A DNA stretch of 64,000 nucleotides. It comes from Escherichia coli O127:H6 str. E2348/69. Lineage in GTDB: Bacteria; Pseudomonadota; Gammaproteobacteria; Enterobacterales; Enterobacteriaceae. The notes under the pieces were generated by a model, which did not search any database, was not told where the DNA came from, and saw only the letters and a program-made list of their open reading frames with translations. Shown piece by piece: positions 26,394 to 33,264 of this stretch. A program made the translations under genes and the position numbers. Within the stretch, counting starts at the first letter, position 1. Every line of letters begins with the position of its first letter. Where the stretch lies: assembly GCF_000026545.1 (NCBI RefSeq), contig NC_011601.1; one strand, written 5' to 3'.

Positions 26394-28043
26394 ATGAAAA
26401 ACATCAATCCAACGCAGACCGCTGCCTGGCAGGCACTACAGAAACACTTCGATGAAATGAAAGACGTTACGATCGCCGATCTTTTTGCTAAAGACGGCGA
26501 TCGTTTTTCTAAGTTCTCCGCAACCTTCGACGATCAGATGCTGGTGGATTACTCCAAAAACCGCATCACTGAAGAGACGCTGGCGAAATTACAAGATCTG
26601 GCGAAAGAGTGCGATCTGGCGGGCGCGATTAAGTCGATGTTCTCTGGCGAGAAGATCAACCGCACTGAAAACCGCGCCGTACTGCACGTAGCGCTGCGTA
26701 ACCGTAGCAATACCCCGATTCTGGTTGATGGCAAAGATGTTATGCCGGAAGTCAACGCGGTGCTGGAGAAGATGAAAACCTTCTCGGAAGCGATTATTTC
26801 CGGTGAGTGGAAAGGCTATACCGGCAAAGCAATCACTGACGTAGTGAACATCGGGATCGGCGGTTCTGACCTCGGCCCGTACATGGTGACTGAAGCACTG
26901 CGTCCATACAAAAACCACCTGAACATGCACTTTGTTTCTAACGTCGATGGGACTCACATCGCGGAAGTGCTGAAAAAAGTAAACCCGGAAACCACGCTGT
27001 TCCTGGTAGCATCTAAAACCTTCACCACTCAGGAAACCATGACCAACGCCCACAGCGCGCGTGACTGGTTCCTTAAAGCGGCAGGTGATGAGAAGCACGT
27101 TGCGAAACACTTTGCGGCGCTCTCAACCAACGCCAAAGCCGTTGGCGAGTTTGGTATTGATACTGCCAACATGTTCGAGTTCTGGGACTGGGTCGGCGGT
27201 CGTTACTCTTTGTGGTCAGCGATTGGCCTGTCGATTGTTCTCTCCATCGGCTTTGATAACTTCGTTGAACTGCTTTCTGGCGCACACGCGATGGACAAGC
27301 ATTTCTCCACCACGCCTGCCGAGAAAAACCTGCCTGTACTGCTGGCGCTGATTGGCATCTGGTACAACAATTTCTTTGGCGCGGAAACTGAAGCGATTCT
27401 GCCGTATGACCAGTATATGCACCGTTTCGCGGCGTACTTCCAGCAGGGCAATATGGAATCCAACGGTAAGTATGTTGACCGTAACGGTAAGGTTGTGGAT
27501 TACCAGACTGGCCCGATTATCTGGGGTGAACCTGGCACGAACGGTCAGCACGCGTTCTATCAGCTGATCCACCAGGGAACCAAAATGGTACCGTGCGATT
27601 TCATCGCTCCGGCTATCACCCATAACCCGCTCTCTGATCATCACCAGAAACTGCTGTCTAACTTCTTTGCTCAGACCGAAGCGCTGGCGTTTGGTAAATC
27701 CCGCGAAGTGGTTGAGCAGGAATATCGCGATCAGGGTAAAGATCCGGCAACGCTTGACTACGTGGTGCCGTTCAAAGTGTTCGAAGGTAACCGCCCGACT
27801 AACTCCATCCTGCTGCGTGAAATCACTCCGTTCAGCCTGGGTGCGTTGATTGCGCTGTATGAGCACAAAATCTTTACTCAGGGCGTGATCCTGAACATCT
27901 TCACCTTCGACCAGTGGGGCGTGGAGCTGGGTAAACAACTGGCGAACCGTATTCTGCCAGAGCTGAAAGATGATAAAGAAATCAGCAGCCACGATAGCTC
28001 GACCAATGGTCTGATTAACCGCTATAAAGCGTGGCGCGGTTAA
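26394..28043 (+). CDS. pgi: Glucose-6-phosphate isomerase
   Basis: 549-aa [22 protein letters not shown]...; PGI signature throughout. Confidence 0.95.
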
Positions 28044-28058
28044 TTAAATAACCCTAAT

Positions 28059-28088
28059 AAAAATGCCGACGTTATGTCGGCATTTTTT
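28059..28088 (+). terminator. Rho-independent terminator after pgi
   Basis: Hairpin aaaaatgccgac-gttat-gtcggcatttttt. Confidence 0.7.
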
Positions 28089-28396
28089 ATCAGATAAATC
28101 CCCTTGTCTGTGATTTAACGGAAATCATACTGTGAGGTTAATCCTAAAATAGATTTTTTATCATGGTTGATTTCGAAAAATACGTAGATTAATTATTTAT
28201 GATTTTATTTTAACTATTTGATTTTTAATATTGTTTATATATGATCTGAAGCTTATATTTGATATTCATTCCAATTATCCTAAAACCCCATCGCTAATTC
28301 ACCGCGCCGTAATTCGCATGCTTTAGTTGTGTATACTCGATCCCGCCCGAAATGTTTTTGGGTAAATCTCCATTCATTCAATGAAGGGAAATTGTT

Positions 28397-28639
28397 ATGA
28401 AAAAAGTTCTGTATGGCATTTTTGCCATATCTGCGCTTGCGGCGACTTCTGCGTGGGCTGCACCTGTACAGGTGGGCGAAGCGGCAGGGTCGGCAGCAAC
28501 GTCGGTTTCGGCGGGGAGTTCCTCCGCGACCAGCGTCAGCACCGTAAGCTCGGCGGTGGGTGTCGCGCTCGCGGCAACCGGTGGCGGTGATGGTTCTAAT
28601 ACCGGGACCACCACAACCACGACCACCAGTACCCAGTAA
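28397..28639 (+). CDS. yjbE: Small secreted low-complexity protein YjbE (Ala/Ser/Thr-rich, poly-Thr tail)
   Basis: 80-aa ORF with signal peptide [21 protein letters not shown] and low-complexity mature part ending [11 protein letters not shown]. Confidence 0.75.
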
Positions 28640-28752
28640 TAAAGTATGCATCCCCAAAATAATTCGAGTCATCGCATCTGTGGCTTGAAGTATGAAGGGA
28701 TTTACCATAACCACACTCCGGTGTGGTTATTCTGCCCCTCTGGAGAAGAGTC

Positions 28753-29391
28753 GTGAAGCGACCAGCACTCATTCTTATCTGCCTGCTATTACAGGCCTGT
28801 TCAGCCACGACTAAAGAGCTGGGCAATTCACTGTGGGACAGTCTGTTCGGTACGCCAGGCGTACAGCTGACGGACGATGATATTCAAAATATGCCCTACG
28901 CCAGCCAGTACATGCAGCTTAATGGCGGGCCGCAGTTATTTGTGGTGCTGGCCTTCGCTGAAGACGGACAACAAAAATGGGTCACTCAGGATCAGGCCAC
29001 CCTTGTCACACAACATGGTCGTCTGGTGAAGACTTTGCTTGGCGGCGACAACCTGATTGAAGTGAATAACCTTGCCGCCGACCCGCTGATTAAACCCGCA
29101 CAAATCATTGATGGTGCAACCTGGACGCGCACGATGGGCTGGACCGAGTACCAGCAGGTACGCTACGCCACCGCGCGCTCAGTCTTCAAATGGAATGGCA
29201 CCGATACCGTCAAAGTCGGCAGCGATGAAACCCCGGTTCGCGTGCTGGACGAAGAAGTCTCCACCGACCAGGCGCGCTGGCATAACCGCTATTGGATCGA
29301 CAGCGAAGGGCAAATTCGCCAGTCGGAACAGTATCTCGGCGCGGATTACTTCCCGGTGAAAACCACCCTTATCAAGGCGGCAAAACAATGA
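28753..29391 (+). CDS. yjbF: Lipoprotein YjbF
   Basis: GTG start giving VKRPALILICLLLQACS (lipobox); SD ggagaagag upstream. Confidence 0.75.
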   Translation: MKRPALILICLLLQACSATTKELGNSLWDSLFGTPGVQLTDDDIQNMPYASQYMQLNGGPQLFVVLAFAEDGQQKWVTQDQATLVTQHGRLVKTLLGGDNLIEVNNLAADPLIKPAQIIDGATWTRTMGWTEYQQVRYATARSVFKWNGTDTVKVGSDETPVRVLDEEVSTDQARWHNRYWIDSEGQIRQSEQYLGADYFPVKTTLIKAAKQ

Positions 29392-30125
29392 TTAAACAAA
29401 CTATTGTCGCGTTGCTTTTGAGTGCGGGGGCGTCATCAGTCTTCGCGGCGGGAACCGTCAAGGTGTTCAGCAATGGCAGCAGTGAGGCCAAAACGCTGAC
29501 GGGCGCAGAGCATTTAATCGATCTGGTAGGCCAACCGCGGCTGGCAAACAGCTGGTGGCCTGGTGCGGTAATTAGCGAAGAGCTGGCCACGGCGGCAGCA
29601 TTGCGTCAGCAGCAGGCGTTGCTGACACGGCTGGCAGAACTGGCTGCAGATTCCAGCGCCGACGATGCCGCCGCGATTAACGCCTTACGCCAGCAAATTC
29701 AGGCGTTGAAAGTGACGGGCAGGCAAAAAATCAATCTTGATCCTGATATCGTCCGCGTTGCCGAACGCGGTAACCCGCCGTTGCAGGGCAACTACACGCT
29801 GTGGGTCGGAACGCCGCCGTCCACGGTCACGTTGTTCGGGCTTATCAGTCGTCCTGGCAAGCAGTCATTCACTCCAGGTCGCGACGTGGCGAGCTATCTC
29901 TCTGACCAGAGCCTGCTCAGCGGTGCGGATCGCAGCTACGCGTGGGTGGTTTACCCGGACGGACGCACGCAAAAAGCGCCGGTGGCTTACTGGAACAAGC
30001 GTCACGTAGAGCCGATGCCCGGCAGCATTATTTATGTTGGCCTCGCGGACTCCGTCTGGAGTGAGACACCTGATGCCCTTAACGCCGACATTCTTCAGAC
30101 TCTGACGCAGCGGATACCCCAATAA
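29388..30125 (+). CDS. yjbG: Periplasmic protein YjbG
   Basis: Start [20 protein letters not shown] (signal peptide), ATGA-overlapped with the yjbF stop. Confidence 0.75.
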
Positions 30126-32221
30126 TGAAAAAAAGACATCTGCTTAGCTTACTGGCGCTGGGCATTAGCACAGCTTGCTACGGCGAAACATATCCTGCGC
30201 CCATTGGTCCGTCGCAATCGGATTTCGGTGGCGTAGGATTATTACAAACGCCCACCGCGCGCATGGCGCGGGAAGGGGAGCTGAGCCTGAACTATCGCGA
30301 TAACGATCAGTACCGTTATTACTCAGCGTCAGTGCAACTCTTCCCGTGGCTGGAAACAACGCTGCGCTACACCGACGTGCGCACCCGGCAGTACAGCAGC
30401 GTCGAAGCGTTCTCTGGCGATCAAACGTATAAAGATAAAGCCTTCGATCTCAAACTGCGTTTGTGGGAAGAGAGTTATTGGCTGCCGCAAGTGGCGGTTG
30501 GTGCGCGGGATATCGGCGGTACGGGGCTGTTTGATGCGGAATATCTTGTTGCCAGCAAAGCCTGGGGGCCGTTCGATTTTACACTCGGCCTGGGCTGGGG
30601 ATATCTGGGCACCAGCGGTAACGTGAAAAATCCGCTCTGTTCAGCCAGTGATAAATATTGCTATCGCGATAACAGCTACAAACAGGCGGGATCTATCGAC
30701 GGCAGCCAGATGTTCCACGGCCCGGCCTCACTGTTTGGCGGCGTGGAATACCAGACGCCCTGGCAACCGCTGCGTCTGAAACTGGAGTATGAAGGCAATA
30801 ATTATCAGCAGGATTTTGCCGGAAAGCTGGAGCAAAAAAGTAAGTTTAACGTCGGGGCGATTTATCGCGTTACCGATTGGGCCGACGTTAACCTTAGCTA
30901 TGAACGTGGCAACACTTTTATGTTTGGCGTCACGCTGCGCACCAACTTTAACGATCTGCGCCCGTCTTACAACGATAACGCCCGCCCGCAATATCAACCG
31001 CAGCCGCAGGATGCCATTTTGCAGCATTCGGTGGTGGCGAATCAGTTAACGCTGTTGAAATACAATGCCGGACTTGCCGATCCGCAGATCCAGGCGAAAG
31101 GCGATACGCTGTATGTTACCGGCGAGCAGGTGAAATATCGTGATCCGCGCGAAGGGAGCATCCGTGCTAATCGGATCGTGATGAACGATCTACCGGATGG
31201 GATCAAAACGATCCGCATTACGGAAAATCGCCTTAACATGCCGCAGGTGACGACGGAAACCGATGTCGCCAGCCTGAAAAATCATCTCGCCGGAGAGCCG
31301 TTGGGCCACGAAACGAAGCTGGCGCAAAAACGCGTCGAGCCAGTGGTTCCGAAGTCCACCGAGCAGGGCTGGTATATCGACAAATCGCGCTTTGATTTTC
31401 ATATTGATCCGGTGCTGAACCAGTCGGTCGGTGGCCCGGAAAACTTTTACATGTATCAGCTGGGCGTGATGGGAACGGCGGATTTGTGGCTGACGGACCA
31501 TCTGCTGACCACCGGCAGCCTGTTTGCTAACCTTGCCAACAACTACGACAAGTTTAACTACACCAATCCACCGCAGGACTCGCACTTACCGCGCGTGCGT
31601 ACCCATGTGCGCGAGTATGTGCAGAACGATGTCTATGTGAATAACCTGCAAGCCAACTACTTCCAGCATCTGGGCAACGGCTTCTACGGTCAGGTCTACG
31701 GAGGTTATCTCGAAACCATGTTTGGCGGTGCGGGGGCAGAAGTGTTGTATCGCCCGCTGGACAGCAACTGGGCGTTTGGTGTGGATGCCAACTACGTTAA
31801 ACAGCGCGACTGGCGTAGTGCAAAAGATATGATGAAATTCACCGACTACAGCGTGAAAACCGGACATCTGACCGCCTACTGGACGCCATCTTTCGCTCAG
31901 GATGTGTTAGTGAAAGCGAGCGTCGGGCAGTATCTGGCAGGGGATAAAGGCGGCACGCTGGAGATCGCCAAACGCTTTGATAGCGGCGTGGTGGTGGGTG
32001 GCTATGCCACGATCACGAATGTTTCGAAAGAGGAGTACGGCGAAGGGGACTTCACCAAAGGCGTGTATGTCTCTGTACCGCTGGATCTCTTCTCGTCTGG
32101 CCCGACACGCAGCCGTGCGGCAATTGGCTGGACGCCGCTGACGCGTGACGGTGGTCAGCAACTTGGGCGTAAGTTCCAGTTGTATGATATGACCAGCGAC
32201 CGTAGCGTCAATTTCCGCTAA
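30125..32221 (+). CDS. yjbH: Outer-membrane beta-barrel-like protein YjbH
   Basis: 698-aa ORF with signal peptide, TAATG overlap with yjbG; fourth gene of the yjbEFGH cluster. Confidence 0.8.
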
Positions 32222-32267: not shown

Positions 32268-32546
32268 TTAATGGCCTGTCGAGCCATCAGGAACGCAGTT
32301 CACCCCCGGTTTGCGATCTGGTGTGTAAAGGCGAAAACATTCTGTCTTCCTGTCCGTCGATATCGGTTGCAGGTCTGGTTGCCTGAGCGACTGGGCCATC
32401 ATTGGGCTGGAGACATTGCTTTGCGGTAGGTCGGTTTTATCAGCAGTATCGAGCGGACCAGCATAAGCAGGAAGAACAGAGACTGATAACATCAAAGCAG
32501 CAAAATAAGGCTTCATTTTTACCACCTTTATCAGGTTACGTTTCAT
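32268..32546 (-). CDS. yjbT: Small secreted protein (YjbT-like)
   Basis: 92-aa minus-strand ORF with N-terminal signal-like segment; gene name from recalled K-12 position. Confidence 0.5.
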   Translation of the reverse strand: MKRNLIKVVKMKPYFAALMLSVSVLPAYAGPLDTADKTDLPQSNVSSPMMAQSLRQPDLQPISTDRKTECFRLYTPDRKPGVNCVPDGSTGH

Positions 32547-33171: not shown

Positions 33172-33264
33172 AAAAAGGCGCTCCGTGGAGCGCCGAATAA
33201 CAGTCACAAGTTGGGATAACGTAAGTTGAGGGTGCAGCGGCATAACATTGGCAGAACAACATCT

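Follow-up and report, generated by a model that had tools for sequence, protein, structure and literature searches.

The yjbEFGH operon of Escherichia coli K-12 (Ferrieres et al. 2007; Ionescu & Belkin 2009) and the group 4 capsule operon gfcABCD are four-gene paralogues, and modules of this type are assigned a role in exopolysaccharide or capsule production (PMC5461412, PMC8117528, PMC8592465). The yjbEFGH operon, which RcsA-RcsB activates, has been tied to an exopolysaccharide other than colanic acid (PMC5461412, PMC5651002, PMC8117528). Both modules encode a small threonine-rich protein with a signal peptide, followed by a hairpin, a lipoprotein, a GfcC-type protein and a two-barrel outer-membrane protein; the gfc module then continues with wza/wzb/wzc homologues, which the yjb module lacks. 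The two-barrel architecture has been described for YjbH (PMC8346858, PMC11494523), and a two-barrel export model exists for YjbH/GfcD (PMC11494523). Recent papers describe the first-gene products of the Gfc/Yjb modules as entirely uncharacterised.

The window analyzed here is a stretch of 64,000 nucleotides from E. coli O127:H6 str. E2348/69. Its segment 28397-32221 matches the E2348/69 chromosome at 100%, where yjbE-yjbF-yjbG-yjbH are annotated in RefSeq (Table 1). The gene order of a GfcB-type lipoprotein, a GfcC-type protein and a YjbH/GfcD-type outer-membrane protein is borne out by Pfam and PDB: YjbF matches PF11102 (E=1e-63) and the structure 2IN5 of YmcC/GfcB (E=4e-43), YjbG carries the N- and C-terminal GfcC domains PF20616 and PF06251 and is related to GfcC in 3P42 (E=2e-54), and YjbH matches PF06082 (E=7e-270), with zero relatives in a PDB sequence search. 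Glycosyltransferase genes are absent from the operon. The yjbF/yjbG overlap is 4 nt (29388-29391) and the yjbG/yjbH overlap is the single base 30125; in such modules, the second gene shortly overlaps the third, and the third the fourth, at their stop and start codons, which is regarded as translational coupling (PMC8592465). Thus, the assignment of the cluster to yjbEFGH by an earlier sequence-only reading is upheld by the annotation, the full match and Pfam, and the link to exopolysaccharide that it gave is in the literature cited above. As a whole, the locus is very probably best explained as the annotated yjbEFGH operon of E2348/69, an envelope module under Rcs activation and a paralogue of gfcABCD. 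This operon is already known at textbook level and finding it adds nothing new; the by-products of the analysis may help the few groups that work on Gfc/Yjb export.

Compared with K-12, locus, YjbE protein, gene order and overlaps are the same. The pgi-yjbE spacer, however, measures 498 nt in K-12 and 353 nt in E2348/69, as K-12 has an extra block of ~145 nt after pgi that by inspection is REP-like. The AT-rich core of the spacer also carries many substitutions, and xylE is missing downstream in E2348/69.

Table 1. Features in and around the yjbEFGH operon, with positions in the window.
Feature	Position	Strand	Description and basis
pgi, glucose-6-phosphate isomerase, 5' neighbour	26394..28043	+	ORF list; RefSeq record of E2348/69
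Predicted STnc430-family sRNA gene	28052-28200	-	divergent from yjbE; Rfam RF02053
Bidirectional intrinsic terminator	28058..28088		A-run, stem ATGCCGAC / GTCGGCAT, loop GTTAT, T-run; read from sequence
Conserved block GTGAGGTTAATCCTAAAAT within STnc430 gene	28132..28150		71-species footprint
Candidate RcsB site TGAGGTTAATCCTA	28133-28146		one mismatch from TNRGAN4TCYNA
AT-rich core	28150..28260		GC 17-22%; composition, strain alignment, 71-species footprint
Second conserved block TTATCCTAAAA	28272..28286	+	moderate conservation; 71-species footprint
Invariant GTTGTGTATACTCG with -10-like TATACT (28332-28337)	28326..28339	+	71-species footprint, strain alignment
Conserved 5' UTR	28363..28396	+	strain alignment, 71-species footprint
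yjbE	28397-28639	+	80-aa precursor; protein identical to WP_000757333.1
Thr7 tract, ACC ACC ACA ACC ACG ACC ACC	28607-28627	+	imperfect ACCACA/ACCACG hexamer repeat
Stem-loop AUAACCACAC-UCCG-GUGUGGUUAU	28707..28730	+	between yjbE and yjbF
yjbF, lipoprotein, GfcB paralogue	28753-29391	+	GTG start, lipobox LLQAC; RefSeq annotation
yjbG, periplasmic GfcC paralogue	29388-30125	+	Pfam and PDB relatives
yjbH, outer-membrane protein, two beta-barrels, GfcD paralogue	30125-32221	+	PF06082; two-barrel architecture from literature
yjbT, small periplasmic protein, convergent 3' neighbour	32268..32546	-	PF17089, E=5e-64

YjbE matches the family PF11106 over residues 1-79 of 79 (E=5e-33, 113.6 bits at a curated cut-off of 27.9), and NCBIfam has a model for neither YjbE nor GfcA. 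Positions 28397-28459 encode a signal peptide with MKK, a hydrophobic core and, by inspection, a predicted cleavage at AWA|AP. A Sec-type signal peptide and the place as first gene 5' of yjbF are the same in 72/72 loci. The mature part of 59 aa contains T13, S12, A11, G9 and V7, so that 88% of it is A/S/T/G/V, as the sequence-only reading had described it; Lys, Arg, His and aromatic residues are absent, and the peptide is acidic. A word-indexed protein search with YjbE returned mostly frameshifted or truncated matches and missed the main cluster; the homologue set therefore comes from an exhaustive phmmer search together with loci reached via YjbH. The extreme composition, and a long antisense ORF of 82 aa (28378-28626) that overlaps yjbE, might suggest that yjbE is a non-coding, GC-rich chance ORF in front of yjbF. 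We regard this as practically negligible, as the family match, the orthologue at 72/72 loci, the conserved ribosome-binding site and signal peptide and a transcript that has been measured repeatedly (PMC8208086) all speak against it, and a substitution pattern biased to synonymous changes rules it out.

The seven threonine codons near the end of yjbE read exactly as the sequence-only reading had given them, and it had proposed that this repetitive tract could vary in length. Tandem Repeats Finder describes the tract with period 3, 7.3 copies, 78% matches and a score of 30, the lowest in its list. The longest pure ACC run has two units, and the interrupted repeat amounts to only ~2 hexamer units. 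Seven threonines are present in about 5,317 of 5,420 complete E. coli genomes (98.1%). An allele with nine (+6 nt, a further ACCACA) was found in 85 of these genomes and one with five (-6 nt) in 18, both checked by sequence; alleles of +/-3 nt number zero among the 5,420. Hence yjbE is not invariant across strains, which carry 5-, 7- or 9-Thr alleles, and the proposed length variation holds in a weak form, in 103 genomes (1.9%). The hypervariability that had been implied does not hold: WP_000757333.1, the standard YjbE, is the same protein in K-12, BL21, O157, one B2 strain and E2348/69. These allele counts were obtained with short probes in blastn mode and are consistent among themselves. A megablast query with a 249-nt allele gave 462 genomes at >=99% identity, an inflated number that clashes with the short probes, perhaps through partial alignments, and was discarded.

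All common tract variants differ by 6 nt and stay in frame, and frameshifts of 1-2 nt in yjbE are isolated events in two genomes only. As the 5-Thr and 9-Thr variants occupy at least three flanking haplotypes, the rare hexanucleotide slippage recurs; it infrequently adds one ACCACA unit to the tract DNA or removes one, and thereby yields the in-frame alleles. Because these changes are in frame, slippage of the tract cannot turn yjbE on or off.

The between-species comparison shows the reverse of hypervariability. Exactly seven threonines are found in 68/72 Enterobacteriaceae orthologues, spelled by 48 different codon strings, and YjbE homologues at 41-60% identity retain the C-terminal motif with Thr7-ST. 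Since the number is kept despite so many spellings, selection acts on the protein. Within the run, the fraction of sequence pairs whose codon differs synonymously is 0.475 and non-synonymously 0.015. The corresponding pair fractions are 0.373 and 0.030 for the segment GGGDGSNTG and 0.473 and 0.036 for the hydrophobic segment, and about 0.40 and 0.20 for the N-terminal mature part, which places the strongest constraint in the C-terminal third. To judge from these alignments, the threonine run is a length-constrained protein motif whose codons turn over freely, and not a contingency tract. The exact length is not strictly indispensable, however, as natural lineages maintain alleles with five and with nine threonines.

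It might still be argued that the run is a hypermutable contingency repeat, whose frequent length change tunes or switches YjbE between strains. Like the contingency loci of pathogens, yjbE has a short tandem repeat in a surface-related gene with recurrent gain and loss of a unit, seen in both directions and on several haplotypes. In addition, a 52-nt probe spanning the tract shows 1-2 base differences in 1,667 genomes, and in BL21, the one example read, an ACG to ACA change turns the ACCACA unit into a perfect two-copy repeat. Contingency repeats, however, are long and uninterrupted, shift a frame or promoter spacing and are highly polymorphic among close isolates. The yjbE tract is interrupted and in frame, offers no switch, has one length in nearly all genomes without any +/-3 nt alleles, and keeps this length between genera and in distant homologues, with non-synonymous change in the run near zero. 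We therefore consider a contingency function of the tract very improbable.

The tail finds its counterpart in GfcA (YmcD), which ends in ...SGDGGSHNTSTTTSTTR; the C-terminal tail type GDG(G)S-(H)NT...TTT-ST-[QR] is common to both proteins. GfcA differs from YjbE in its length of 101 aa, in a long T/G-rich N-terminal part and in a far more hydrophobic core, and the Pfam YjbE model does not recognise it. The hairpin 3' of gfcA is analogous to that of yjbE. The latter has a dG of -14.8 kcal/mol (z = -3.5), and its core AACCACAC-N4-GTGTGGTT is present in 72/72 orthologous loci, with the loops UUCG (66), UGCG (3), UCCG (2) and CUCG (1). In E. coli, a clear U-tract is absent. The hairpin, which parts yjbE from yjbFGH, is probably a transcript-end or stability element. 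The yjbE mRNA is reported to exceed the yjbFGH mRNA in abundance (Ferrieres 2007, cited in PMC8208086), and the hairpin may have a part in setting this ratio.

The region upstream of yjbE had been read as a long AT-rich leader that suggests heavy regulation. It is indeed AT-rich, with a GC content of 17-29% over about 28100-28299, but it is shorter than claimed, as GC rises to about 43% over 28300-28399. Part of it is, moreover, the predicted divergent STnc430-family gene: RF02053 matches over its full model 1-162 with 81.3 bits (gathering score 47, E=1e-13), and STnc430 lies upstream of yjbE in the same position and orientation in 9/14 loci of other genera or species. This enterobacterial sRNA was first listed in Salmonella, and the E. 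coli match is full-length, with terminator, and syntenic beside yjbE; its score of 81 bits stays below the values reached in Citrobacter, of which the highest is 117, and one segment counts 8 nt in E. coli but 20 in the model. The PGAP annotation misses this gene, and a literature search for STnc430 or a pgi-yjbE sRNA found nothing relevant. The terminator coincides with the 3' hairpin in the STnc430 covariance-model alignment and would serve pgi on the plus strand and the sRNA gene on the minus strand. On the minus strand, inspection shows a -10-like TAAAAT at 28212-28207, and the AT-rich core presumably houses the sRNA promoter. Across E. coli strains, this core stands out as a polymorphism hotspot, and other genera do not conserve it; no part of the intergenic region is less conserved, and conserved elements flank it on both sides. 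Only 4 of 5,422 genomes match a 671-nt probe at 99% identity or more, whereas 5,071 do so for the CDS. The supposed leader is thus better viewed as a composite, apparently common to the yjbE upstream region and the divergent STnc430-type gene.

Among the flanking elements, GTTGTGTATACTCG is conserved to >=95% over 71 species and invariant among E. coli strains. From this conservation, it is likely the yjbE core promoter, which would make the 5' UTR some 50 nt long. The 5' UTR contains the ribosome-binding site GAAGGGA (28383-28389) and the palindrome TTCATTCAATGAA (28373-28385). A consensus promoter scan chose TTGATT-16-TATGAT at 28218-28245 instead; neither the sigma-70 scan, this choice included, nor the terminator scan did better than on shuffled sequence, and the simple terminator scan missed the evident pgi terminator. 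With the RcsB box consensus TNRGAN4TCYNA (PMC7913699), one-mismatch matches occur at 28090 and 28133, one of them conserved, and the window as a whole is not enriched in such matches (31 as compared to 54 expected). The RcsAB box TAAGAATATTCCTA has zero matches in the pgi-yjbE spacer at up to 3 mismatches. The block TTATCCTAAAA, ~45-60 nt 5' of the conserved -10, repeats TCCTA, the right half of the upstream box, and may be an Rcs half-site.

With regard to function, we propose that YjbE is produced in excess over YjbFGH, with the hairpin setting the ratio, that it is exported to the periplasm and that, being unstructured, it would serve there as partner or cargo to an outer-membrane machine of YjbF, YjbG and YjbH, which in turn would export or anchor polysaccharide. 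The Thr7 tail could then be a docking or spacer element of fixed length. Taken jointly, excess, periplasmic partner or cargo role and tail function come near an even chance, and rather below it than above. AlphaFold predictions leave mature YjbE disordered: in AF2 models of both fusions, its segment has a pLDDT of 25-32. GfcA, too, has been called natively unstructured (PMC8346858). In YjbF-YjbG-YjbE, YjbF and YjbG are well folded (pTM 0.69) and YjbE is unstructured; YjbH(21-698)-linker-YjbE is a poor model with a mean pLDDT of 57. Neither of them, both built on shallow alignments and with a tool that reports no inter-domain error or contact output, has a confident YjbE contact.

A bolder version makes YjbE/GfcA-type peptides the exported cargo or carrier of YjbH/GfcD, perhaps via the N-terminal barrel, which has been placed in the FapF family (PMC8346858). 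The invariant UNCG hairpin would provide the excess of YjbE/GfcA, the seven-threonine tail would serve for docking or as a spacer of fixed length, capsule or exopolysaccharide anchoring would change with the rare alleles of five or nine threonines, and one Rcs signal would act on both sRNA and operon through the conserved RcsB-box-like block that lies within the divergent STnc430 gene. A parallel is Fap amyloid secretion, in which the FapF barrel exports the unfolded FapC: YjbE is likewise small, unfolded, A/S/T/G/V-rich, exported and encoded in the same operon as a barrel. This likeness is only an analogy; Fap subunits have no sequence relation to YjbE. We think that the joint reading is quite unlikely to hold in full. 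Authors who used this very strain speculated for GfcA that such a peptide is a covalent carrier (PMC8592465). Ser/Thr residues of YjbE/GfcA, notably those of the tail, would receive O-linked polysaccharide in the periplasm, and this conjugate would leave through YjbH. That YjbE is Ser/Thr-rich, exported and disordered agrees with this, as does the conserved tail, and an operon without glycosyltransferases would handle a polymer made elsewhere. On the other hand, exactly seven threonines are not obviously needed by an acceptor. E. coli K-12 is also not known to possess a protein O-oligosaccharyltransferase. The carrier idea appears unlikely to us.

Just as unlikely seems a location in the inner membrane, in which the G/A/V-rich segment of these small proteins would form a transmembrane helix with a cytoplasmic Thr tail, and YjbE/GfcA would belong to the inner-membrane side of the pathway. 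RefSeq names GfcA a 'threonine-rich inner membrane protein', and AF2 draws a low-confidence helix in YjbE. Over 19 residues, Kyte-Doolittle hydropathy peaks at 2.16 in GfcA and at 1.9-2.1 in distant YjbE homologues, so their central segment has the hydrophobicity that a membrane helix needs and would fit such a location; E. coli YjbE, however, reaches just 1.24, below the usual threshold of 1.6. Positive charges are also missing from the tail, which conflicts with the positive-inside rule, and YjbE has a cleavable AxA signal peptide. We favor the periplasmic partner or cargo role. The C-terminal Thr7-S-T motif of the first-gene products is strongly constrained in length, and for this motif the natural 5-, 7- and 9-Thr alleles are usable as test material.

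The chromosome of E2348/69 (EPEC O127:H6) matches a 671-nt probe (28050-28720) at 100%, and the RefSeq gene order, pgi, yjbE, yjbF, yjbG, yjbH, a gene for a small periplasmic protein, psiE and malG, has the same relative positions as in the window. According to the ORF calls, the cluster at 28397-32221 extends exactly from the first base of the yjbE start through the yjbH stop. Its identification as yjbEFGH agrees with both the RefSeq annotation and four Pfam family matches, in which YjbE, YjbF, YjbG and YjbH each score far over the family threshold; the PDB holds the paralogues GfcB for YjbF (2IN5) and GfcC for YjbG (3P42). Since the locus was known and annotated before, interest in it is low. 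What the sequence-only reading had observed here stands, but its interpretation stands only in part, given that tract variation is rare and that the supposed leader contains a putative sRNA gene. In K-12, xylE lies between psiE and malG; it is missing from E2348/69, where malG directly follows psiE (33172-33264).

Features of the yjbE region (window positions)
Feature	Position	Strand	Remarks
STnc430-family sRNA gene (putative)	28052-28200	-	Rfam full-length match, 81.3 bits (threshold 47)
Conserved block	28132-28150		within putative STnc430 gene; contains TGAGGTTAATCCTA; candidate element; 71-species footprint
AT-rich core	28150-28260		polymorphism hotspot in E. coli strain alignment
Conserved block	28272-28286		TTATCCTAAAA; candidate element; 71-species footprint
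Conserved block	28326-28339		GTTGTGTATACTCG, includes -10-like TATACT; candidate element; 71-species footprint
Conserved 5' UTR and ribosome-binding site (candidate)	28363-28396		71-species footprint
Conserved palindrome	28373-28389		TTCATTCAATGAA; overlaps yjbE Shine-Dalgarno GAAGGGA
yjbE	28397-28639		80-aa product
Thr codon tract	28607-28627		ACC ACC ACA ACC ACG ACC ACC
Hairpin	28707-28730	+	10-bp stem, UCCG loop

Mature YjbE comprises 59 residues past the predicted cleavage site between AWA and AP, and Ala, Ser, Thr, Gly and Val make up 88% of them, with one Glu, one Asp and no basic or aromatic residue, which bears out the low complexity described earlier. The poly-Thr codons were likewise confirmed letter for letter. 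They form an interrupted and not a pure repeat, which Tandem Repeats Finder barely reports (period 3, 78% matches, score 30). With YjbH, 80 loci from different Enterobacteriaceae species were fetched, and the 71 yjbE orthologues recovered from them gave, together with the window yjbE, a set of 72 sequences. Exactly seven Thr are found in 68 of these, the exceptions being four Kluyvera sequences with T5-S-T3, and the run is encoded by 48 distinct codon strings. In a pairwise codon comparison, the synonymous and non-synonymous difference fractions are 0.475 and 0.015 for the Thr run, 0.373 and 0.030 for GGGDGSNTG, 0.473 and 0.036 for AVGVALAAT, and ~0.40 and 0.20 for the N-terminal mature part. 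The codons could also be read as a contingency tract, that is, a hypermutable simple-sequence repeat, but we reject this reading on the constant number of Thr, the diversity of codon strings and the near-zero non-synonymous change, which argue for the opposite, a motif that is constrained in length at the protein level. The strict conservation of this Thr tail is a modest new point. Searched exhaustively with phmmer, 1.84 billion representatives yielded only 29 relatives, of which the full-length ones (41-60% identity) keep a C-terminal tail with GGG(D/N) and the seven Thr. GfcA, the paralogue from the group 4 capsule operon, ends in SGDGGSHNTSTTTSTTR and is not detected by the Pfam YjbE model.

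Within E. coli, yjbE is present in 5,420 of 5,426 complete genomes, and its CDS is at least 99% identical in 5,071 of the carriers. Depending on the probe, a match is missing from 4-6 of the 5,426 genomes; in PCN061 the match is confined to the first 90 nt of the probe, suggesting a deletion, and one match sits on a record classed as plasmid. Tract length was read with three short probes, for which single-base changes, 3-nt indels and 6-nt indels fall into separate identity bands. The wild-type 52-mer is exact in 3,650 genomes, differs by 1-2 bases in 1,667 and falls into the 6-nt indel band in 103, with none of the 5,420 genomes in the band of +/-3 nt alleles; the +6 and -6 probes identified 85 and 18 carriers, respectively. 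Reading of the sequences confirmed three alleles, all in frame, with 7 Thr (~5,317 genomes), 9 Thr (ACCACA duplicated in tandem) and 5 Thr (one ACCACA unit lost). The suggestion that the tract could vary in length is therefore correct and yjbE is not completely invariant among strains, but the variation concerns only 1.9% of genomes and always preserves the frame. BL21, which is among the genomes that deviate from the 52-mer by a base change, has ACG>ACA at 28621, and ACCACA thereby becomes a perfect two-copy repeat. As the +6 allele occurs on K-12-like, B2-like and BL21-like flanking haplotypes, and the -6 allele on ACG and on ACA backgrounds, ACCACA slippage has either recurred or the alleles have moved via very short recombination tracts. 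These rare recurrent 5-Thr and 9-Thr alleles are a modest new point. Rare lesions comprise a 1-nt frameshift in yjbE (strain E2863), a 2-nt deletion inside the Thr tract (FCI56) and an IS1A that splits the gene (EC25, fetched locus 1665-2684). Strain 317, with the 9-Thr allele, has 72 nt inserted in the yjbE-yjbF spacer at the equivalent of 28667, possibly an ERIC-type element.

The UNCG-loop hairpin between yjbE and yjbF (dG -14.8 kcal/mol, z = -3.5) has a core, AACCACAC-N4-GTGTGGTT, that occurs without covariation in each of the 72 Enterobacteriaceae loci; 66 of them have a UUCG loop. This invariance is another modest new point. In Escherichia, ~50 extra nt separate the yjbE stop from the hairpin. 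The gfcA-gfcB spacer likewise carries a strong hairpin, and yjbE mRNA reportedly exceeds yjbFGH mRNA in abundance (Ferrieres 2007, as cited in PMC8208086); together with the invariance, this suggests an excess of YjbE that the hairpin would set.

GfcA and its relatives are described in the literature as uncharacterised (PMC11494523), with a predicted lack of structure (PMC8346858), and one group speculated that GfcA is modified with O-antigen and exported via GfcD (PMC8592465). Published models of YjbH/GfcD show two barrels, of which the N-terminal barrel belongs to the FapF family and the C-terminal barrel has a lateral gate (PMC8346858, PMC11494523). Two AlphaFold fusions served as docking test. 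YjbH-linker-YjbE folded poorly (mean pLDDT 57), and in YjbF-YjbG-YjbE only YjbF and YjbG were well folded (pTM 0.69); YjbE was unstructured in both (pLDDT 25-32), which supports its disorder, and neither fusion gave evidence for YjbH, YjbF or YjbG as a YjbE partner. The confident YjbF and YjbG, with a whole-chain pTM of 0.69 despite 30-residue linkers, hint at a defined arrangement of the two in the model, as has been proposed for GfcB/GfcC (PMC8592465). A location of YjbE at the membrane stays conceivable because the central segment reaches a hydropathy of 1.9-2.2 in GfcA and in distant homologues, although only 1.24 in E. coli YjbE. With a little less than even confidence, we regard YjbE as disordered, with a Thr tail of fixed length, and as exported to serve a YjbFGH outer-membrane machine as partner or cargo.

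Upstream of yjbE, the AT-rich stretch noted earlier is real over ~28100-28299 (GC 17-29%) but does not reach the gene, as the last 100 nt ahead of the start codon have ~43% GC. The putative STnc430 gene, divergent from yjbE, is missing from the RefSeq (PGAP) annotation; its 3' end is the hairpin that also terminates pgi, and the match keeps position and orientation in 9 of 14 loci of other genera or species. Such an sRNA gene hidden in the 'leader' would be a further modest new point. Only 4 of 5,422 genomes are at least 99% identical to E2348/69 over the 671-nt probe, because the probe spans the polymorphic AT-rich core, which is also unconserved in the 71-species footprint; 28262-28396 is near-invariant among the aligned E. 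coli strains. The pgi-yjbE spacer haplotype of E2348/69 is rare, whereas the yjbE CDS is almost invariant. The conserved palindrome may be bound by a protein, or else may fold into a small structure masking the ribosome-binding site. It is established that yjbEFGH is under RcsA-RcsB control and is regulated by envelope damage as well as osmotic stress (PMC5461412, PMC5651002, PMC8117528, PMC8208086), and TGAGGTTAATCCTA, a candidate site, is one mismatch off the RcsB box TNRGAN4TCYNA (PMC7913699); matches to this box are not enriched across the 64-kb window. The sole exact match in the window, TTAGAAAAATCTTA (11412-11425), lies 38 nt upstream of a yjbB-like 543-aa ORF with Na/Pi-cotransporter and PhoU domains (11463-13094). 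In the K-12-type strain 6FA, the spacer measures 498 nt versus 353 nt here, with ~145 nt extra between pgi and the STnc430 region that by inspection resemble REP elements, and E. whittamii has an Rfam match to the REP-derived naRNA4 at the equivalent place (fetched locus 1791-1861).
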